Shown in pieces: positions 3,065 to 20,196 of a stretch of DNA of 44,350 nt. The notes below the pieces were generated by a model. That model was given only the letters and a program-made list of their open reading frames with translations. It was not told where the DNA came from and ran no database searches. Source of the stretch: a virus; the UHGV virus genome UHGV-0187309, one strand, 5' to 3'. Both the position numbers and the translations under genes were made by a program. Within the stretch, counting starts at the first letter, position 1, and every line of letters begins with the position of its first letter.

Positions 3065-3937
3065 TTACTCCTCATCGTCCTCGTGCATGACTTCATATCG
3101 CTTGATATCTCTCTTGCTTGCAATGGAAGCGGGTTCAAGGATACCGAGAACGCGCCCGATCAGAGTGACATTGTCATATTCTGTGAATGTCATGGTATCA
3201 TACTTATCATTAAACGATACCAGACCTTCTTCCTCATATATCTTTATGTATGTACTGTTTCCAACCATGAAAGCGCCGACCTCATCGTATTGCAGCTCCG
3301 GACAGCCGGGATACTTCTCCACAAGAACAAGGTCGCCGTCATGATACTCAGGCTCCATACTGTCGCCGTTGACAGGAAACACAAGGTCTGCCTGCCGTAT
3401 TGCTGTGTTCGTATTCGGATACAGATAGATCGGTGTTCCGTTGTCCTCAAACTCCGCCCCGCCGTCAAAGCCTGCTGCAAGCCCCTTGTCGCAGAGTGTC
3501 AGTTTGATGATCTCCGGGAAGCTGCCGACAGTCTCTGCCGCTTCAAGCGAGGATAGCAGACTGTCCATTGCAAGCTGGTGCGGATACGACAGTCCACGGT
3601 ATCTCTCTACCATAGACTTTTCCTTATCAGTATAGGTATCTTGCTTGTTTTCGATGCCATATAGTTCATACAGCGTGATACCAAGTGCGTCACATAGCTT
3701 AGGAACAACGCTGAAATCCGGGCGGGTTCTTCCGTTCTCCCAGTTACTGATAGCATTTGAGGTCACGCCGATTTTTTCTGCAATCACTTTCTGATCTAAT
3801 TTTAGACGCTCCCTGTAGTATTTGATGCGACCGCCAACCGCGTGAGCGTCCTTACGGTGGGCAGGATCAGAGATGTTACTCTTAATATCCTTGCCTCCCT
3901 GTGAGACTGAGATATTCGGTTTCTTACGCTGTTTCAT
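3065..3937 (-). CDS. CI-like phage repressor (XRE HTH + S24/LexA-type autopeptidase)
   Basis: HTH IKYYRERLKLDQKVIAEKIGVTSNAISNWENGRTRPD; S24 motif FPVNGDSMEPEYHDGDLVLVEK. Start placed at the second ATG (3937) because GGAGAG lies 7 nt upstream; the track ORF extends to 3955. Confidence 0.85.
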   Translation of the reverse strand: MKQRKKPNISVSQGGKDIKSNISDPAHRKDAHAVGGRIKYYRERLKLDQKVIAEKIGVTSNAISNWENGRTRPDFSVVPKLCDALGITLYELYGIENKQDTYTDKEKSMVERYRGLSYPHQLAMDSLLSSLEAAETVGSFPEIIKLTLCDKGLAAGFDGGAEFEDNGTPIYLYPNTNTAIRQADLVFPVNGDSMEPEYHDGDLVLVEKYPGCPELQYDEVGAFMVGNSTYIKIYEEEGLVSFNDKYDTMTFTEYDNVTLIGRVLGILEPASIASKRDIKRYEVMHEDDEE

Positions 3938-4097
3938 TACAAAGCTCTCCTTCAAGAATGTATGGGATAGTCAATCCTCAAAACGAACAAATATTCTTAT
4001 TGAAATCTGTGCAACCCTACAAAGTTTATCAAAGACTTTTCAACGCTGAAAACGTTAGAAATGCGAAATTTGGCGTAGGCATTGCATCTTTGATCAC

Positions 4098-10601: not shown

Positions 10602-13487
10602 GTGGTGATTTTATTGAGCAGACGTGTACTTTCCATCGACTTAGAGACCTATTCGGATGTAGACCTCCCGAACTGCGGTGTGTACCGCTATGTTGAGGGA
10701 GATTTCCATATCCTGCTGTTCGCATATGCATTTGACGATGAGGAGACAAAATGCGTGGATATGGCCTGCGGGGAGCAGCTCCCGGCAGAGGTCGTGGATG
10801 CGCTGCAGGATGACAGTATTATCAAATCGGCATGGAACGCACAGTTTGAGCGTACCTGCCTTTCAAAATATCTCGGTACGCAGATTTCTCCGGACTCGTG
10901 GCAATGCACGATGGTATGGGCGGCATCGCTTTCACTTCCGCTGAAGCTGGCAACGGCTGCACAGGCACTGAAAACTGCACAGCAGAAGGACGCTGTCGGT
11001 GAGCGTCTTATCCGTTATTTCTCTCTGCCCTGTAAGCCCACCAAAGCAAACGGCGGCAGAACAAGAAATCTGCCGGAACACGCCCCCGAAGACTGGAAGC
11101 TGTTCAAAAGCTACTGCATACAGGACGTGGAAACCGAGCGGGATATCCGCCGCAGGCTTGAAAAGTTCCCCCTGCTCCCGCAGGAATGGGACTACTACCA
11201 CATGGATCAGCGGATCAATGATCGCGGTATCCTGATCGACAAAGAGCTTGTGCAGCAGGCTATTATCTGCAATATGGCAATGTCCGAAGAAATGACAAAA
11301 CGTGCATACGCTCTGACAGGACTTGAAAATCCGAATTCCGTATCACAGCTCAAGGGATGGCTTGAGGAGCGTGGCATTGAGGTGGATTCCCTCGGCAAAA
11401 AGAATGTCGCTTCTCTTATCACAGACCTCGACAGGCACAGCGCAGACGGTGAGGCTCTGGATATGATGAAGCTGCGGTTGCAGATGGCAAAGTCCTCTGT
11501 GAAAAAGTATCAGGCGGCAGAGAGATACATCTGTCAGGACGGCAGGGCGCACGGACTGTTTCAGTTTTCCGGAGCTCAGCGAACACAGCGCTGGTGTCTT
11601 ACCGGCGATCATGAAATACTGACAGATAAAGGCTGGCTCAGGCTTGATAATTGGCAGGGCGGTAAGATTGCTTGTTGGAATCCTAATCAGGAAATGGTCT
11701 CGTTCCAGAAAGCGAACGTATTGTGCTTTGAATATGACGGTCCTATCTACCGCTATGAGGACAAACGGATCGATCAGATCAGCACGCCGGATCACAAAAT
11801 GCGTGTAAAGAAACGGTATAACGGCGAGTGGACGGATGACACTGTTGGCAATATGGAAAAGTATCGTCCTTCTATTCCGTTTACCGGACGCAGACAAACG
11901 ATGCCCGGCTTGGAGCACGCAGAACTGAGGGTACTGGTGATGACGCAGGCTGACGGCAGCTATAAAGAAGATGGAATGCTCTGCTTCCATTTCAAGAAGA
12001 AAAGGAAAATAGAACGGTGCAAACATCTGCTCAGACAGGCGGGCATTTATTTCACAGTGAATGAATGCAGGACAGATGGAACAACGCAGATCAAGATTCC
12101 TTCCCGTGAGCAGCCGATGTATCTAAGAATGTTTCATAACAAGACATTTGGAATGTGGCTTCTCGATGAAAGCCCGGATGTTTTCTTTGATGAGCTTCGG
12201 TATTGGGACGGATCGCAAAGCGCCAAAAACAGTATCCAATATACCACAACGAACAAAGTGAATGCCGATATTGTTCAGGCTTTTGCTCATACAAGTGGTC
12301 GCTGTGCAAAAATGAAAACGGTCATCCGGGATAAAGAACACCCGAATTGGAGCGATGCATACTATCTCGATATATGGCTCACTCCGAAAAACTGTCATGA
12401 AATCAGAGTGAAGCCGACTATCTCGCAATTCAGCGGCAAAATATACTGTGCTGAAACCCCAACCGGATACTTCCTTGTAAGACGTAATGGTAAAGTGTGG
12501 GTAACAGGAAACAGCGGGCGCGGCATTCAATTACAGAACCTGCCGCAGAACCACATCTCTACCCTCGATGAAGCAAGAGAACTTGTCAAAATGGGCTGCT
12601 TTGACATGATCGAAGCACTGTACGGCAATACGCCGGATATCCTGTCACAGCTTATCCGCACGATGCTCATTCCGAAGGACGGCTGTGAATTTATCGTGGC
12701 AGACTTCTCCGCCATTGAAGCGAGAGTACTTGCGTGGCTTGCCGGAGAACAGTGGCGGCTCGATGCCTTCAAGCGTGGCGAGGATATTTACTGTGCATCC
12801 GCATCGCAAATGTTCGGTGTTCCGGTCGTGAAGCACGGCATCAATGGAGAACTGCGGCAGAAAGGCAAGGTCGCTGAGCTTGCCTGTGGTTACGGAGGTG
12901 GCAGCGGTGCGCTGATCTCTATGGGTGCGCTGGATATGGGACTGAAAGAGGATGAACTTCCCGACATCATTTCAAGCTGGCGCGATGCAAACCCGGAGAT
13001 CGTGAAATTCTGGTATGCCGTGGAGAAAGCGGCGATCGAAACAGTCAAGGACCACGCGGAAAGAACGGTCGGCAGGATCGGTTTTCAGTTCTCTGCAAAT
13101 ACACTGTGGATCGTGCTGCCGTCCGGGCGCAGACTTGCCTACATCAAGCCGAGGTTACAGCCGAACCGTTTCGGGCGTATGGCGCTGACCTTTGAAGGAC
13201 TCGGTGCAAACAACAAATGGACGCGCGGTGAGACATACAGCGGCAAGCTGACGGAGAACATCACACAGGCGACCGCCCGTGACCTGCTTGCAGAGGCAAT
13301 GCACCGAATGGAGCTTGCGGGACTTGACATAGTCGGTCATGTGCATGATGAGGTCATTTTGGAAGTGCCGAAAAGACAATATACGGTCGATGATGTGTGC
13401 AATATCATGAATCAAAATCCGAGATGGGCAGACGGTCTGCCCTTATCATCTGCCGGATATACCGGCAATTACTACTTCAAAGACTGA
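10602..13487 (+). CDS. family A DNA polymerase (3'-5' exo + pol) interrupted by an intein
   Basis: Exo motif LSIDLETYS. Pol motif A IVADFSAIEARVLAWLAG, motif B RQKGKVAELACGYGGG, motif C GHVHDEVILEV. The real start may be TTG 10614 (AGGTGGTGA RBS). Confidence 0.9.
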   Translation: MVILLSRRVLSIDLETYSDVDLPNCGVYRYVEGDFHILLFAYAFDDEETKCVDMACGEQLPAEVVDALQDDSIIKSAWNAQFERTCLSKYLGTQISPDSWQCTMVWAASLSLPLKLATAAQALKTAQQKDAVGERLIRYFSLPCKPTKANGGRTRNLPEHAPEDWKLFKSYCIQDVETERDIRRRLEKFPLLPQEWDYYHMDQRINDRGILIDKELVQQAIICNMAMSEEMTKRAYALTGLENPNSVSQLKGWLEERGIEVDSLGKKNVASLITDLDRHSADGEALDMMKLRLQMAKSSVKKYQAAERYICQDGRAHGLFQFSGAQRTQRWCLTGDHEILTDKGWLRLDNWQGGKIACWNPNQEMVSFQKANVLCFEYDGPIYRYEDKRIDQISTPDHKMRVKKRYNGEWTDDTVGNMEKYRPSIPFTGRRQTMPGLEHAELRVLVMTQADGSYKEDGMLCFHFKKKRKIERCKHLLRQAGIYFTVNECRTDGTTQIKIPSREQPMYLRMFHNKTFGMWLLDESPDVFFDELRYWDGSQSAKNSIQYTTTNKVNADIVQAFAHTSGRCAKMKTVIRDKEHPNWSDAYYLDIWLTPKNCHEIRVKPTISQFSGKIYCAETPTGYFLVRRNGKVWVTGNSGRGIQLQNLPQNHISTLDEARELVKMGCFDMIEALYGNTPDILSQLIRTMLIPKDGCEFIVADFSAIEARVLAWLAGEQWRLDAFKRGEDIYCASASQMFGVPVVKHGINGELRQKGKVAELACGYGGGSGALISMGALDMGLKEDELPDIISSWRDANPEIVKFWYAVEKAAIETVKDHAERTVGRIGFQFSANTLWIVLPSGRRLAYIKPRLQPNRFGRMALTFEGLGANNKWTRGETYSGKLTENITQATARDLLAEAMHRMELAGLDIVGHVHDEVILEVPKRQYTVDDVCNIMNQNPRWADGLPLSSAGYTGNYYFKD
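11595..12512 (+). mobile_element. 306-aa intein with LAGLIDADG-like homing endonuclease domain inside the DNA polymerase
   Basis: Extein junctions RTQRW|CLTGDHEILTDKGW ... GKVWVTGN|SGRGIQLQNLPQN. Block B STPDHKM. DOD-like motifs LRVLVMTQADGSY and FFDELRYWDGSQ. Removing it restores the contiguous RW-SGRGIQLQNLP polymerase motif. Confidence 0.8.
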
Positions 13488-14780: not shown

Positions 14781-15217
14781 GAGAATATGTTGTCGAAAAC
14801 GAGTTTGTCAAGGCGGTAAAAGCGGCAGGCGGTGTGGCATACAAGCTGACATCGCAGACCGCAAACGGACTGCCGGACAGACTCGTTCTGTTCCCGGCGG
14901 CAAAGACGATTTTCGTGGAGCTGAAAGCACCGGGGAAAATGATGCGACCGTTGCAGCGTAAAAGACGGTATCAGCTTATGAAACTCGGCTTTCCGGTGCT
15001 GTGCATTGACAGGATGCCGCAGATCAAGCCGTTCATATCAGCAGCATTGTCATGGACACCCGGTGAGCCGTTCCCGGAAGGCATCGGTGCGAAGATACCC
15101 GATCTGGAAAGGGCAACGCTGCCGACGGATATGGATAACTTCGGGGAAACGCTTGAACCCATCGATCCAGACAATCTGATAGAGTTTTATGAAATAGAGG
15201 ACGGTGATGATGCATGA
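14777..15217 (+). CDS. VRR-NUC domain nuclease
   Basis: EFVKAVKAAGGVAYKLTSQTANGLPDRLVLFPAAKTIFVELKAPGKMMRPLQ. Start uncertain: TTG 14777 overlaps the previous stop, and the track ORF begins at 14690. Confidence 0.75.
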   Translation: MREYVVENEFVKAVKAAGGVAYKLTSQTANGLPDRLVLFPAAKTIFVELKAPGKMMRPLQRKRRYQLMKLGFPVLCIDRMPQIKPFISAALSWTPGEPFPEGIGAKIPDLERATLPTDMDNFGETLEPIDPDNLIEFYEIEDGDDA

Positions 15218-15711
15218 TTAACCCTAAACGCAGAGCTGTGAGAAAAAGCTGCTCATACTGCGGAACTGTCTTTACCTATGTCGGAAGTCATGGTACAAGA
15301 AATAAGCATTTTTTCTGTTCTCATGAATGCTATATTGCCTTTAAGACAAAGAAAGCAGAAGTGAAATGCGATTGGTGCGGCAAATCAATGCTGAAAAAAC
15401 GCTCTGATATATGGAGAACGGATCACAATTTCTGCTGCCCCGAATGCTGTTTACTGTATAGGCAAAAGCAAGGCGAAACTTCATGGAATCATCGTGTGAA
15501 TGGAATAACCGTACACAGGGGCATTTTGGAGAAGAAGCTCGGACGAGAACTGCGTGCGGATGAAGAAGTACACCTTATCGATGGTAACCATTTCAATAAT
15601 GATCCGGACAATCTCATCGCCCTTTCCAAATCGGAACACGCCAAAATTCATTCTTCTTGGAAAGCGAGGGACGAGTATGGAAAATACGTTAAAACGCAGT
15701 CAGATTCATGA
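15214..15711 (+). CDS. free-standing HNH homing-type endonuclease with N-terminal Cys-rich zinc-finger region
   Basis: HLIDGNHFNNDPDNLIALSKSEHAKIH. Multiple CxxC/CxxxC pairs N-terminally. Overlaps both neighbours (ATGA at 15214; 35 nt into the SNF2 gene). Confidence 0.8.
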   Translation: MINPKRRAVRKSCSYCGTVFTYVGSHGTRNKHFFCSHECYIAFKTKKAEVKCDWCGKSMLKKRSDIWRTDHNFCCPECCLLYRQKQGETSWNHRVNGITVHRGILEKKLGRELRADEEVHLIDGNHFNNDPDNLIALSKSEHAKIHSSWKARDEYGKYVKTQSDS

Positions 15712-17059
15712 ATACCAAAAATACTGTGTTGACTTTATTAAGTCTCATCCCGTATCAGCACTCTTTTTGGATTGCGGACTTGGAAAGACGATCATTTCAT
15801 TGACTGCAATATATGATCTAATGTTTGATGAGCTGAAGGTATCTAAAGTTCTTGTAATTGCCCCTCTAAGAGTGACAAATGTCTGGAAAGCGGAGGTTCA
15901 GAAATGGAGTCATCTGCAAGATGTTGATGTTGCGATAGTAGTCGGAACTGTAAAACAGCGGATTGCTGCGATTAACAGTAACGCTCTTGTTTACGCTGTC
16001 AACCGTGAAAATGTGAAGTGGCTCGTAGAGTATTACGAGAAGAACGGTCTTCGCTGGGATTACGATATGATCGTCATTGACGAGCTGAGTTCCTTCAAAA
16101 ACTACCAGTCACAGCGGTTCAAATGGTTGCGTAAGGTTCGGCCTTTCGTGAAGCGCTGGGTAGGATTGACAGGAACGCCGACTTCCAACGGTCTCATGGA
16201 CCTGTGGGCAGAGATCGGTATCCTTGACGGCGGTGAGCGGCTCGGACGGTTTATAGGCAGATTTCGTGAAAGCTATTTCAAGCCTGCGTCCATGAATCCG
16301 TCAACCGGTGTTGTTTTCAGCTACACCCCACGTCCCGTCGCAGAGGAGCAGATCTATAACAAAATCTCCGACATTACGATTTCCATGAAGGCACTGGATT
16401 ATCTGGATATGCCGGAATGTATCTTCGTCAATCATGAGGTCGAGATGAATGCAGCAGAGCGAAAACTATACGATCAGCTGAAACAGGATCTTATCATTCC
16501 GCTTGAGGACGGAGATATCGATGCTGCCAACGCTGCCTCTCTCTCCAACAAGCTGCTCCAGATGGCTAACGGCGCGGTCTATGACGAAAACAAGGAAGCC
16601 CGAATCATTCACAGCCGGAAACTGGAAATGCTGGAAGACCTGATCGAAGCCGCAAACGGACAGCCTGTTCTGGTCGGCTACTGGTTCAAGCATGACCGCA
16701 CTCGCATCATGGAGCATCTAACCGCCTGCGGTTACAGCCCTCGTGATATAAAGGATTCCGCCGACATCACAGACTGGAACGCCGGAAACATCCCGGTCGC
16801 TCTTATACACCCCGCTTCGGCAGGACACGGTCTGAACATTCAGTCCGGTGGCCATATCATGATCTGGTTCGGTCTGACATGGAGCTTAGAGCTTTATCAG
16901 CAGACAAATGCGCGTTTGTGGAGGCAGGGACAGAAGCACACTGTCACGATCCACCACATCGTAACAAAAGACAGTGTCGATGAGGATGTGCTTGCTGCTT
17001 TGGCCAATAAGGATGTAACACAGGAGAAATTGATCGCCGCTGTCAAGGCGAGATTATAG
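15677..17059 (+). CDS. SNF2/DEAD-like superfamily 2 helicase
   Basis: Start at Met42 of the track ORF (GAGGGA RBS). Motif I LDCGLGKT, motif II VIDELSSF, HPASAGHGLNIQ, motif VI QQTNARLWRQGQ. Confidence 0.88.
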   Translation: MENTLKRSQIHEYQKYCVDFIKSHPVSALFLDCGLGKTIISLTAIYDLMFDELKVSKVLVIAPLRVTNVWKAEVQKWSHLQDVDVAIVVGTVKQRIAAINSNALVYAVNRENVKWLVEYYEKNGLRWDYDMIVIDELSSFKNYQSQRFKWLRKVRPFVKRWVGLTGTPTSNGLMDLWAEIGILDGGERLGRFIGRFRESYFKPASMNPSTGVVFSYTPRPVAEEQIYNKISDITISMKALDYLDMPECIFVNHEVEMNAAERKLYDQLKQDLIIPLEDGDIDAANAASLSNKLLQMANGAVYDENKEARIIHSRKLEMLEDLIEAANGQPVLVGYWFKHDRTRIMEHLTACGYSPRDIKDSADITDWNAGNIPVALIHPASAGHGLNIQSGGHIMIWFGLTWSLELYQQTNARLWRQGQKHTVTIHHIVTKDSVDEDVLAALANKDVTQEKLIAAVKARL

Positions 17060-17081
17060 GATCATACTCTCCGTATGATCC
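17059..17081 (+). other. perfect 9-bp stem-loop directly after the SNF2 stop (no U-tract)
   Basis: GGATCATAC tctcc GTATGATCC. Confidence 0.4.
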
Positions 17082-17144
17082 GCACTGAAAAGACGACAAA
17101 GCGGCGACAAAACGGTTACACCGCACTCTATGGAGGTGAAAACT

Positions 17145-17648
17145 ATGGCGCGTAAGAACAAACGCCTGAAAACAGAATACCACAGAGGTCTCGGTTTTGA
17201 TCCGCGAAAGTATATGACTTCCTACTCCCACCAAACTCGCTGTGAATCAATTCCGACTCCCGACCGTGCTCCAAAGCGCGGCGATATCTGGTTTGCGCGG
17301 CTCGGCACACATCCGAATTCCAGTGTGCAGGGCGGCACCCGTCCCGTTATCATCATTTCTAACGACCTCGGCAACGAACACGCTGACACCGTCAATGTTG
17401 TGCCGATGACCAGACACCTGAAAAAGCCGGAGCTGCCTTGTCACACTCCGCTTTCTCCCGGCAGCATTACCGATAGCAGACAGCCGCTTGAACTGTCAAT
17501 GGTGCTGGCGGAGCAGCTCACAACTGTCAGCAAGAACGCACTTCGCTATTATGCAGGTCATATTTCCGATGACGAAGCTATGAACCGCATCGAAACCGCT
17601 GTTATTGCGCAGCTCAGTCTTGAAAGGAGATATTCCAAATGCCTGTGA
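17145..17648 (+). CDS. PemK/MazF-family endoribonuclease-like toxin with ~45-aa N-terminal extension
   Basis: GGAGGTG RBS before ATG 17145. PKRGDIWFARLG...GGTRPVIIISNDLGNEHADTVNVVPMT is the PemK/MazF core. No antitoxin-like ORF upstream. Confidence 0.72.
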   Translation: MARKNKRLKTEYHRGLGFDPRKYMTSYSHQTRCESIPTPDRAPKRGDIWFARLGTHPNSSVQGGTRPVIIISNDLGNEHADTVNVVPMTRHLKKPELPCHTPLSPGSITDSRQPLELSMVLAEQLTTVSKNALRYYAGHISDDEAMNRIETAVIAQLSLERRYSKCL

Positions 17649-20068
17649 ATTTTGTCAATATCCCAGATGTTCTGAAGCAGACCGCTTCTTTCTGTGTCTG
17701 GAAGCTGGAAAAGAGATCCGGCAGACCGACCAAAGTACCGTATAACCCTCGCACCGGTGCAATGGCGAGAACCAACGATCCGTCTACCTTTGCAGACTTC
17801 AATACAGCAATGAAATCCTATGCCATCGGCGGATGGGACGGTATCGGCTATCGTGTCAGCGAAGGCATCGGTGCAATCGACATCGACCACTGCATCCGTG
17901 AGGACGGCAGTCTCAATGATGTTGCAGCATCCATTCTCGGTATCTTCCCCGATGCGTACTTTGAGCGCAGCCCCTCTGGTACCGGCTTGCGCGGCTTTTT
18001 TCGCCTTTCTCCTGATTTCGCCTACGATAAGACTGTGTACTACATCAACAACCGAAAGCACGGTCTGGAGGTCTATCTTCCCGGTGTGACGAACCGCTTT
18101 GTGACTGTTACAGGAGATATGTTCCGCAATGGTGCAGTTACCCGAAATGACGGTTCCCTGCGCACACTACTTGATACCTTCATGAAGCGCAGCACCCGTG
18201 TATCTTCCAAGACTGTCGAGCCTGTGTCCTATCTCGATGATGACGGTGTTATCGCTCACGCATCGGCATCTGAATCCGGCGACAAGTTCAAAGCACTGTA
18301 TGCCGGTAACTGGGAGGAAGGCTACGATTCCCAGTCCGATGCAGATATGGCGCTTGTGTCTATCCTTGCATTCTGGTGCGGTAATGTCGAGGAGCAGATC
18401 GACCGTATCTTCCGAACTTCCGGTCTGATGCGTGATAAGTGGGATCGTATGACCGGAGACAGAACTTACGGACAGATCACGATCCGCAATGCTGTCGCTA
18501 CCAATTCCGCTGTCTATACACCGATTCAGGATTCTACGGCAGAAGATGACTTTGACGATATCGAGGGCGATGCGGAAAATGAGCAGCTTATGTTTGAGCC
18601 TGATCTCACCCATGTTTCCCTGACGCTGGAAGAAATGCAGCCGCACACGAATCCCCGCTATCAGCGTGACGAGATCGGCATCGGATATGCATTTGCGGAT
18701 TATTATAAGCCCATCGCTCGTTTTGACCGTGAGCGCGGCATCTGGTATGTCTTTGACGGGAAGGTGTGGCAGCCGGACGAGAATGCGCTTGCCGTGGCGG
18801 AGCTTGCAAAGCGTCTGGCAGACAGGCTGTATACCTTTGCCCTTCAGATCAAGGATGAGGACACACGCAACCGCTATATCAAGCGAGTGCAGAAGCTGCA
18901 AATGCGGAAGAACCGCCGCACCATGATCGAAGATGCGAAATCCGTGTATCCAGTGCCGCACGCTATCTTTGACCGCAATACCTACCTTTTCAACTGTCAG
19001 AACGGGACACTGAACCTCACCACAGGTGAATTCCGTCCGCACGATCCGGCAGACTTTCTCACCATGATGTCCGGTGTCACTTATGATCCGAACGCCACCT
19101 GTCCACGATGGGAGCAGTTCATTTCCGAAGTTATGTGTAATGATGCTGACCTCGCATTATACTTGCAAAAAGCCCTCGGATATGCGCTTACCGGCGACAC
19201 ATCACTGGAATGCCTGTTCATCCTCTACGGTGCAACATCCAGAAACGGCAAAGGCACCACAATGGAGACCTTTCTCAAAATCATGGGCGACTACGGCAAA
19301 ACCTCCAATCCGGAGATGCTGTCTACGAAATTCGGCAACACCAATGCTTCCGGACCGTCCGAAGAGATCGCCCGGCTTGCGGGTGTCCGTTTTGTCAATA
19401 TCTCCGAGCCGGAGAAGAAGATCACCTTCAATGCGGCACTGGTAAAGCGTATGACGGGTAATGATACACTGAATGCACGTTTCCTGCATGAGAATTCCTT
19501 CGACTTCCGACCGAATTTCAAGATCTTCATCAATACGAATTACAAACCGTCCGTTTCTGATATGACACTGTTTTACTCCAACCGTCTGAAGCTCATTCCG
19601 TTCAAACGCCATTTTGAGGAGCATGAGCAGGACAAAGGTCTGAAAGCATTTTTCAGTACGTATGTCTGCCTCTCTGCCATCTTCAACTGGTGCTATGAAG
19701 GATATAAGCGGTTCCGTTCCGAAGATCTGGAAGATCCGGCTGCTGTATCTCAAGCAACCAAGGAGTATCAGGAGGAGTCTGACCGTATCGGGCAGTTTGT
19801 GGATGCGTGGCTCGAAGAAGGCGAAGCATTTGAAGTCCGTACCTCTGCGGCATATAAGCTGTACGGTGAATGGTGCGATAAATATGGCTACCGCAAGGAA
19901 AACAGCACCAACTTCAATAACGCGATCCAGCGTTTCTTCCCCATCGTGCGTAAGCGCCCGAACGATACTAAGGGTGCGCAGAAAACAACGATGCTTGTGG
20001 GCTGTCGTTTTCTGGAGCATGAAAACGGCGAAGCTGACGAACCAGAGGAGTTTGCAGCTTTGGAGTAA
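17639..20068 (+). CDS. bifunctional prim-pol / D5_N / P4-type primase-helicase
   Basis: N-terminal prim-pol (FCVWKLEKRSGRPTKVPYNP...GAIDIDHC). C-terminal NTPase with Walker A YGATSRNGKGT. Starts 10 nt inside the MazF-like gene. Confidence 0.88.
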   Translation: MPVNFVNIPDVLKQTASFCVWKLEKRSGRPTKVPYNPRTGAMARTNDPSTFADFNTAMKSYAIGGWDGIGYRVSEGIGAIDIDHCIREDGSLNDVAASILGIFPDAYFERSPSGTGLRGFFRLSPDFAYDKTVYYINNRKHGLEVYLPGVTNRFVTVTGDMFRNGAVTRNDGSLRTLLDTFMKRSTRVSSKTVEPVSYLDDDGVIAHASASESGDKFKALYAGNWEEGYDSQSDADMALVSILAFWCGNVEEQIDRIFRTSGLMRDKWDRMTGDRTYGQITIRNAVATNSAVYTPIQDSTAEDDFDDIEGDAENEQLMFEPDLTHVSLTLEEMQPHTNPRYQRDEIGIGYAFADYYKPIARFDRERGIWYVFDGKVWQPDENALAVAELAKRLADRLYTFALQIKDEDTRNRYIKRVQKLQMRKNRRTMIEDAKSVYPVPHAIFDRNTYLFNCQNGTLNLTTGEFRPHDPADFLTMMSGVTYDPNATCPRWEQFISEVMCNDADLALYLQKALGYALTGDTSLECLFILYGATSRNGKGTTMETFLKIMGDYGKTSNPEMLSTKFGNTNASGPSEEIARLAGVRFVNISEPEKKITFNAALVKRMTGNDTLNARFLHENSFDFRPNFKIFINTNYKPSVSDMTLFYSNRLKLIPFKRHFEEHEQDKGLKAFFSTYVCLSAIFNWCYEGYKRFRSEDLEDPAAVSQATKEYQEESDRIGQFVDAWLEEGEAFEVRTSAAYKLYGEWCDKYGYRKENSTNFNNAIQRFFPIVRKRPNDTKGAQKTTMLVGCRFLEHENGEADEPEEFAALE

Positions 20069-20107
20069 AAGTAGACTTTTCTCCGTATTTACGCTGTTTT
20101 CCGCAGT

Positions 20108-20196
20108 TGGGGCAGCGTGGGGCAAGTTTTTTCGGTGGTTATTATTATTACTTCTCTTTATATATATTACTATTTTTACTTGCCCCTACTTGCCCC
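20108..20196. repeat. ori-like element: inverted pairs of TGGGGCA(AG) iterons flanking a 52-bp AT-rich core
   Basis: TGGGGCA 20108..20114 and TGGGGCAAG 20118..20126. CTTGCCCC 20179..20186 and 20189..20196. Core 20127..20178 is ttttttcggtggttattattattacttctctttatatatattactattttta. Confidence 0.35.

Follow-up and report, generated by a model that had tools for sequence, protein, structure and literature searches.

A MazF-type gene with a constrained N-terminal motif and no adjacent antitoxin in the replication module of Oscillospiraceae/Ruminococcus phages

The virus genome UHGV-0187309 was analyzed over a stretch of 44,350 nucleotides (nt), the window, in which a mazF-like gene lies between an SNF2-family helicase gene and a D5_N/NrS-1-type primase gene. 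MazF toxins are usually studied as halves of bacterial toxin–antitoxin pairs; an earlier note, made from the sequence alone, had described this copy as an orphan toxin with a basic N-terminal extension. The gene at 17145–17648 is a real MazF-type gene, which confirms the first observation made on it, and it has no adjacent antitoxin partner. Its parts and translation signals are as follows.

17145–17648, plus strand: mazF-like gene, 167 amino acids (aa) including the extension, from its open reading frame (ORF) and sequence; stop codon TGA at 17646–17648
17132–17138, plus strand: Shine–Dalgarno (SD) sequence GGAGGTG of mazF, from sequence; kept in all related loci
17145–17219, plus strand: conserved basic N-terminal motif, residues 1–25 (MARKNKRLKTEYHRGLGFDPRKYMT), from homolog alignment, the ratio of nonsynonymous to synonymous substitution rates (dN/dS), and profile search
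17220–17270, plus strand: variable linker, residues 26–42, from dN/dS of 0.45, variable length, and an AlphaFold2 (AF2) confidence score (pLDDT) below 60
17271–17645, plus strand: MazF endoribonuclease core, residues 43–167, from alignment to 4me7/4mdx, invariant columns, AF2, and Foldseek
17622–17641, plus strand: SD (GAAAGGAG, 17622–17629) and ATG (17639–17641) of the primase gene, within the 3′ end of mazF, from sequence

The gene and its MazF core

The mazF SD stands 6 nt from the ATG at 17145. A second in-frame ATG, at 17130, is unlikely to be the start; because it overlaps the SD, and because most homologs are called from MARKN, we took 17145 as the start. The SNF2 stop codon (TAG, 17057–17059) leaves a gap of 85 nt (17060–17144) before mazF, and at the other end the primase ATG at 17639 and the mazF stop codon create a 10-nt overlap, which recurs in 24 of 35 related viral contigs. 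The coordinates first reported for the ORF, the gap, a hairpin within it, and the primase overlap all proved correct. More than 200 full-length homologs (160–170 aa, 62–98% identity) were found, and codon alignments of 32 distinct genes record purifying selection; the ORF is genuine, not a chance reading frame.

The family assignment made earlier held at the levels of profile, fold, and catalytic residues. Pfam PemK_toxin (PF02452) matches residues 44–155 over profile positions 1–107 of 109 (E = 8.8e-22; 77.8 bits against a gathering score of 23.1), the top PDB sequence matches are Bacillus subtilis EndoA/MazF and Staphylococcus aureus MazF (~2e-15), and PHROG 1936, "MazF-like growth inhibitor," matches residues 40–163 (1.1e-26). 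AF2 modeling with close homologs alone (alignment A2) gave a pLDDT of 48, and a rerun with a diverse alignment (A4) was used; in that monomer model residues 43–160 exceed a pLDDT of 90. The fold is the SH3-like barrel of MazF, Kid, and CcdB: The best Foldseek match is 4mdx_A, RNA-bound B. subtilis MazF (TM 0.89, rmsd 1.9 Å), and the top 50 matches are all MazF structures. On alignment to 4me7/4mdx, R66 and T89 correspond to R25 and T48 of B. subtilis MazF, which we take to be the catalytic pair of the MazF–RNA structure paper, and the conserved E123–Q124 corresponds to its LLEQ motif. R66 and T89 are both invariant in A2; in A4 (103 sequences, down to 35% identity), R66 is invariant and T89 is at least 90% conserved.

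Structural alignment with B. subtilis MazF (EndoA/YdcE) and S. aureus MazF gives 31–34% identity, with the fold, the catalytic Arg/Thr, and the E–Q RNA-binding pair in common. By analogy, the chemistry of the phage protein is most likely that of these enzymes: metal-independent cleavage of single-stranded RNA. Their specificity cannot be carried over, because the S1–S2 loop region differs in sequence. The phage core is also mildly basic, with a pI of 8.3 against 5.1 for B. subtilis MazF. The genetic context differs as well: The two bacterial toxins belong to MazEF, an autoregulated bicistron, whereas the phage gene sits within a replication operon, has no upstream mazE, and encodes 43 additional N-terminal residues, among them a conserved basic motif, that the bacterial proteins lack.

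The N-terminal motif and its linker

The basic extension, put at about 45 aa in the earlier note, is real and conserved; it measures 43 aa, the PemK_toxin match beginning at residue 44. Residues 1–25 (MARKNNRMKTEYHRGLGFDPRKYIT; net charge +6) are nearly invariant in 119 homologs, and the 10–17 residues that follow are variable. Codon alignments of the 32 distinct mazF genes gave the following values per segment.

Motif, residues 2–25: dN/dS 0.09, dS 0.74
Linker, residues 26–42: dN/dS 0.45, dS 1.48
Core, residues 43–158: dN/dS 0.15, dS 1.08
C-terminal tail over the primase signals, residues 159–167: dN/dS 0.70, dS 0.55 (lowered dS)

The low ratio of the motif therefore reflects constraint at the protein level that is tighter than on the catalytic core, and the extension is a conserved architecture, not an artifact of gene calling.

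When 1.84 billion representatives were searched with a profile built from just the extension, 26 matched, nearly all of them MazF-domain proteins (133–262 aa). The MazF matches carry M[AGP]RKN[KNR]RxKxEYxxxLGF[DN]PxKY[IV] at residue 1, joined to the core by a low-complexity linker of ~10 to ~95 aa. We refer to the motif as the tag where its distribution is at issue. A sister clade has a shorter tag, MGRKNRRKxEHIP..., and some clade members are wholly untagged; in one of these (L118) an intrinsic-terminator-like hairpin directly abuts the mazF ribosome-binding site (RBS), and the absence of the tag is on that account genuine. The long tag co-occurs with a D5/NrS-1 primase directly downstream, and short-tag and untagged forms adjoin MetK; this co-occurrence is a lead, and only a lead, toward a replisome partner.

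The motif occurs once on a protein other than MazF. P0252 is a stand-alone chromosomal gene product on a Ruminococcus-type contig (L110, 5001–5432), in which the motif is joined to an unrelated domain of ~115 aa without a family match; it amounts to one cluster on a handful of contigs. Its sole homolog, P0264 (L167, 4001–4366), is without the motif and lies upstream of a gene cluster that includes an SIR2 protein, possibly a defense island. Domain and family searches gave no identity for the C-terminal domain shared by P0252 and P0264. The motif itself has no match in Pfam (E ≤ 10), NCBIfam, PHROGs, or PDB sequences, and a supposed resemblance to the KNKR...CPR segment of ribosomal protein bL33 found nothing to support it and was dropped.

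In the AF2 monomer, residues 1–42 reach pLDDT 54–65, with short helices at residues 7–16 and 20–23 and no confident packing. Basic charge, terminal position, a flexible and variable linker, dispensability in sister clades, and a single transfer favor a tethering reading: The tag would most likely be an accessory targeting or tethering module, a role that fits these sequence features better than that of an RNA-mimicking antitoxin acting in cis.

MazF homologs are widespread among phages, and sequence databases hold more distant relatives. By tblastn, 102 GenBank phage records encode MazF homologs, including Lactobacillus Herelleviridae, Heliusvirales, and Faecalibacterium phages; all matches fall below 60% identity and most are without the extension. 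PHROG 1936 and 35650 ("MazF-like growth inhibitor") have the MazF core in common with the phage protein, and the profile does not reach the N-terminal motif. A literature search found no experimentally characterized protein among these phage homologs, and no paper on the motif, on this mazF clade, or on the constant position of the gene within the module. MazF-like annotations in phages are already known; what most merits experimental work is the N-terminal motif, with its strong constraint.

Genomic setting, upstream gap, and antitoxin search

The surrounding features that bear on the gene are the following.

15677–17059, plus strand: SNF2-family helicase gene, with probable start at M42 of ORF 15554–17059 (Pfam SNF2-rel_dom, 8.5e-20; relatives 413–456 aa)
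17059–17081, plus strand: perfect 9-bp hairpin over the SNF2 stop codon, without a T-run (arms 17059–17067 and 17073–17081, 5-nt loop)
17092–17123, plus strand: conserved non-coding block with 11-nt periodicity (GACGACAAAGC GGCGACAAAAC GGTTACACCG; Tandem Repeats Finder (TRF) period 11)
17639–20068, plus strand: D5_N/NrS-1-type primase(-helicase) gene (Pfam D5_N, 1.3e-34; NrS1-1_pol-like_HBD, 4.6e-28)
3065–3955, minus strand: CI/LexA-like HTH-S24 repressor gene, from domain scan

The window is part of a temperate phage. Its long plus-strand run opens with a sigma-like regulator, DUF2800/PDDEXK, an Enc34-type single-stranded DNA (ssDNA)-binding protein, PolA, DUF932, and VRR-NUC; continues through an HNH insertion, SNF2, mazF, primase, MetK, and HNH; and goes on to anaerobic ribonucleotide reductase, methylases, and the small and large terminase. 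The order DUF2800, Enc34-type ssDNA-binding protein, PolA, DUF932, VRR-NUC, SNF2, MazF, primase, and MetK recurs in metagenomic contigs and in metagenome-assembled genomes under the names Oscillospiraceae or Ruminococcus, and the isolate R. flavefaciens 007c has it too. We searched IMG/VR with the primase and counted the 37 viral contigs with enough upstream sequence: mazF lies directly upstream of the primase in 35, all tagged (some with TTG or GTG starts), one of the other two holds only a mazF 3′ remnant, and one has no mazF. In the short-tag and untagged clades, mazF follows SNF2 and a sigma-like or ~150-aa ORF and directly precedes MetK, often overlapping it. No neighbor gene is constant across the whole mazF clade (SNF2 or the ~150-aa ORF upstream; primase or MetK downstream). 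A scan of the gap, made with a simple sigma-70 consensus only, found no sigma-70-type promoter, and the gap holds no terminator. Given its presence in 35 of 37 contigs, its fixed place, the lack of a promoter or terminator of its own, and a GC content like that of its neighbors, mazF is a core gene of the phage module and no moron, and is probably co-transcribed with the replication genes.

Several features of this region stand apart from the gene itself. A terminator-like 13-bp stem with a T-run at 20088–20121, just after the primase stop, is probably the end of the replication operon before metK. An HNH endonuclease ORF (15214–15711) between VRR-NUC and SNF2 is absent from related loci, and the PolA ORF (10602–13487) encodes 961 aa against 651 aa in relatives; both suggest window-specific insertions of the homing-endonuclease or intein type. 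In one relative (L007, 6489–8514), a large serine recombinase (Pfam) follows a 133-aa N-terminal primase fragment and precedes host genes, and in another (L128, ~1500–2100) a putative recombinase, read from translation only, precedes the mazF 3′ remnant; these may mark integration or attachment sites in the mazF–primase region, or the insertion of another element. In MetK-adjacent clades (L040, ~1040–1070; L118, 4950–4985), a sigma/ArpU-like regulator gene is followed by an intrinsic-terminator-like hairpin with a T-run that immediately precedes the mazF RBS; expressing mazF at this point, where the late region starts, would require read-through or antitermination. On the plus strand of 4300–44350, the most depleted pentamers are GGACC/GGTCC (GGWCC) and CCTGG (z −5 to −7), consistent with restriction-site avoidance. 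Other gene products of the phage include MetK, several DNA methyltransferases, an amidoligase, and a GGACT enzyme.

Antitoxin candidates were sought in the gap, over the gene, and across the window. The 85-nt gap holds no ORF; among antisense and out-of-frame ORFs over mazF (the other five frames), none is conserved in 31 related loci; and Pfam scans of 35 other ORFs of the window, many of whose ORFs match nothing in Pfam, found no MazE/AbrB, RHH, PHD, or other antitoxin domain. The claim that no antitoxin gene adjoins or overlaps mazF holds here and in dozens of related loci, and the orphan status likewise withstood the scan of those 35 ORFs for an antitoxin elsewhere. A type II MazEF system would place an adjacent, usually upstream antitoxin in a two-gene operon with its own autoregulated promoter or operator and would supply an antitoxin of a known family within the element. 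Here the gap is without an ORF and the neighbors vary; the gap has no sigma-70-like promoter, and what lies upstream is the conserved 11-nt-periodic block; and the 35 scanned ORFs, in a window that is part of a phage, include no known-family antitoxin.

The gap does hold structure. The perfect 9-bp stem-loop reported earlier is present, but it is not the sole content of the gap, which also has an 11-nt direct repeat (17094–17115) as part of the conserved block. The hairpin gave no terminator score and is partly conserved: 6–9 bp in one group of relatives, absent in another. Relatives conserve the block much better than the hairpin: Pairwise identity over 20 distinct loci is 95.9% for the block and 60.6% for the third codon positions of mazF. 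Relatives carry a 43-nt version of three ~11-nt units, GACGACAGAAA GACGGCAAAGC GGCGACAATTC GGTTACGCCG (e.g., L001, 5930–5975), and the window a two-unit version; in a second set of loci the block takes a variant but related form. The block is single-copy per locus and always stands just after SNF2, even where another gene precedes mazF. We read it, tentatively, as an element that acts as DNA or binds a protein, for example an origin iteron or an operator; alternatively, it may be an RNA element.

RNA-level readings of the gap were weighed separately. The intergenic RNA fold is no stabler than shuffles (z −0.87), Rfam has no match in the gap region, and a possible GCGGCG(N12)CGCCGC stem shows mismatches and no compensatory changes; an RNA antitoxin in the gap was rejected on these grounds. 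GRCGRCAA, tried as a genome-wide iteron, is enriched all along the plus strand and is not gap-specific. The toxin of type III ToxIN has a Kid/MazF-like fold, and its ToxI partner is an array of ~34–36-nt repeats followed by a terminator. Like ToxIN, the phage locus has no protein antitoxin and a non-coding upstream region; unlike ToxIN, it has two or three 11-nt units (2 × 11 nt in the window by TRF, and no ToxI-like array), no terminator, and no Rfam match, and in some loci an inserted gene separates the block from mazF. That insertion is an extra divergent gene of 82 aa between block and mazF in a subset of loci (L026, 2611–2859, minus strand; L029–L031, L038, L120–L122, L126, and L146), with an AT-rich stretch before it that is likely a promoter and a hairpin after it that may be a terminator, both read by eye from the sequence. 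Its product has no Pfam match. We rejected it as the antitoxin, since it shows no antitoxin domain and the window does not contain it.

A proposed lytic-cycle endoribonuclease and its alternatives

The reading we favor, at about even confidence, is that of a catalytically competent, sequence-specific, antitoxin-less MazF-fold endoribonuclease, fixed in the early/middle replication operon of temperate Oscillospiraceae/Ruminococcus phages and bearing a tethering tag. In this scheme mazF would share the transcript of a lysogeny-repressed operon with SNF2 and the primase, and a strong SD of its own would serve its translation. Synthesis of the protein would begin only once the lytic program runs, when killing the host costs the phage nothing; an antitoxin would on that account be superfluous. 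MazF would most likely cut single-stranded host RNA, early phage mRNA, or both, and cleavage would shift ribosomes and nucleotides to other uses or make a temporal switch sharper. The 25-aa Arg/Lys-rich motif, on its flexible linker, would most likely anchor the nuclease, either to RNA or to some partner, for example the ribosome or a protein of the replisome. Host-mRNA shutoff, proposed in the earlier note, is plausible as the role. The long lytic-operon run, the lack of a promoter or terminator of its own, and near-universal presence in the module fit a lytic-program function better than a moron expressed in the lysogen for superinfection exclusion, the other role proposed early on.

The closest functional analogue appears to be T4 RegB, an RNase of the RelE/YoeB fold without a known antitoxin, which is made early and inactivates early mRNAs (PMC3014915). 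The reviewers of the RegB work offered the same argument for why an antitoxin may be unnecessary (PMC3014915), and RegB activity is boosted by ribosomal protein S1 (PMC3014915; PMC1702504). Both proteins are phage-encoded, have the fold of a toxin–antitoxin toxin, and are without a known antitoxin; RegB, a sequence-specific mRNA endonuclease, differs in its RelE-like fold, in lacking an N-terminal tag, and in belonging to a virulent phage. Operon placement and the lack of an antitoxin are consistent with a RegB-like class, cleavage by the phage MazF being predicted.

Several points weigh against this reading. Motif avoidance as a form of self-immunity would predict sense-strand depletion, and neither ACA nor UACAU, the B. 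subtilis MazF site, is depleted on the phage sense strand—a weak test, since the phage enzyme may cut at another site; the depleted 5-mers are instead palindromic restriction-type sites. The window ends before the structural genes, which leaves room for a trans antitoxin elsewhere in phage or host, and the promoter scan covered a simple sigma-70 consensus. For activity, expression, and targets the reading draws on sequence and predicted structure, the tether role is deduced from architecture, and P0252, the one protein other than MazF to bear the motif, forms a single cluster from a handful of contigs.

That the extension is itself the antitoxin strikes us as unlikely. In such a single-chain toxin–antitoxin, the extension would fold back on the MazF dimer and keep it inactive until proteolysis, a phage or host signal, or superinfection; the corollary, a prophage with a one-gene abortive-infection or exclusion switch, is equally unlikely. 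The reading would suit the failure to find a separate antitoxin, a motif more constrained than the catalytic core, and the AF2 helices at residues 7–16 and 20–23, and a flexible linker of variable length serves a tethered inhibitor as well as a tether. The toxin-binding tail of Escherichia coli MazE, however, is acidic and occupies the positively charged RNA groove, whereas the motif carries a charge of +6. The extension shows no confident docking (residues 1–42 at pLDDT 54–65, AF2 monomer only), the motif is dispensable and portable—same-slot clade members do without it, L118 having an intrinsic terminator directly upstream of its RBS, and it also occurs on an unrelated domain—and the gene lies in a lytic operon without its own promoter. 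Neutralization in cis by the extension, raised in the earlier note, is not borne out by this evidence, nor did structure prediction give the confident extension–core contacts that the note had looked to. EzeT and CapRel likewise combine a toxin domain and an extra segment in one polypeptide with no separate antitoxin gene; in those proteins that segment folds as an antitoxin domain with demonstrated inhibition in cis, unlike the 25-aa basic motif and disordered linker here, with no predicted docking and dispensable in some members. Neutralization in trans—by a phage protein outside the window, by one non-homologous to known antitoxins, or by a host MazE that cross-neutralizes—seems to us improbable to much the same degree. 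The window takes in part of the phage, Pfam matches are lacking for many window ORFs, and solo toxins are common in genomes, with trans-acting antitoxins proposed as their explanation (PMC2701414). The 82-aa gene between SNF2 and mazF in a subset of relatives (L026) would be a candidate, but it is absent from the window and most relatives and has no antitoxin domain; no conserved neighbor is common to the clade, and the scanned window ORFs hold no MazE, AbrB, RHH, or PHD domain.

Two further readings concern when and how the protein would act. Early MazF activity might damp phage or host expression and bias the lysis–lysogeny decision, which we regard as quite improbable. The phage is temperate, with a CI/LexA-like repressor, and the gene lies in an early/middle operon; the analogy is with phi3T, whose proteins are reported to modulate host MazEF and so to control the life cycle, host MazF activity being tied to the arbitrium decision (PMC10769878). 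Yet phi3T manipulates a host toxin and does not encode one, and in MetK-adjacent clades mazF stands where the late region begins, directly behind a terminator, which is late for a decision. Very improbable, finally, is a non-nucleolytic replication role, in which a MazF/CcdB fold would bind a replisome protein (primase or helicase) and the nuclease chemistry would be irrelevant. It would account for the fixed place between SNF2 helicase and primase, the translational coupling to the primase, and the pairing of the long tag with a D5/NrS-1-type primase downstream while short-tag and untagged forms adjoin MetK; against it, the catalytic Arg/Thr and the RNA-binding E–Q pair are invariant or nearly so across the clade, and other clade members are not adjacent to a primase.

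Beyond the lytic-cycle reading, we put forward tentatively, as less likely than not, that the motif is a previously undescribed, portable short linear module, attached to RNase or toxin domains through a disordered linker of arbitrary length, that would either target the enzyme (to the ribosome, the replisome or primase, or structured RNA) or serve as a switch within it. An antitoxin-free MazF that regulates itself would then be a standard part of the replication-to-late transition throughout a clade of Clostridia phages, and the host may have borrowed the same tag in P0252. The question is testable, since a cultured host, Ruminococcus flavefaciens 007c, has a related prophage, at locus L096 on contig NZ_ATAX01000017.1.

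Across a large group of Clostridia phages from gut and rumen, a partner-less MazF with intact catalytic residues is a near-universal gene of the replication module, which points to toxin RNases as a routine tool of the phage lytic program. If the lytic-cycle reading is confirmed, the protein would be a MazF-fold counterpart of T4 RegB in phages of Gram-positive anaerobes, and its N-terminal tag would be a new short motif for RNase targeting or control.

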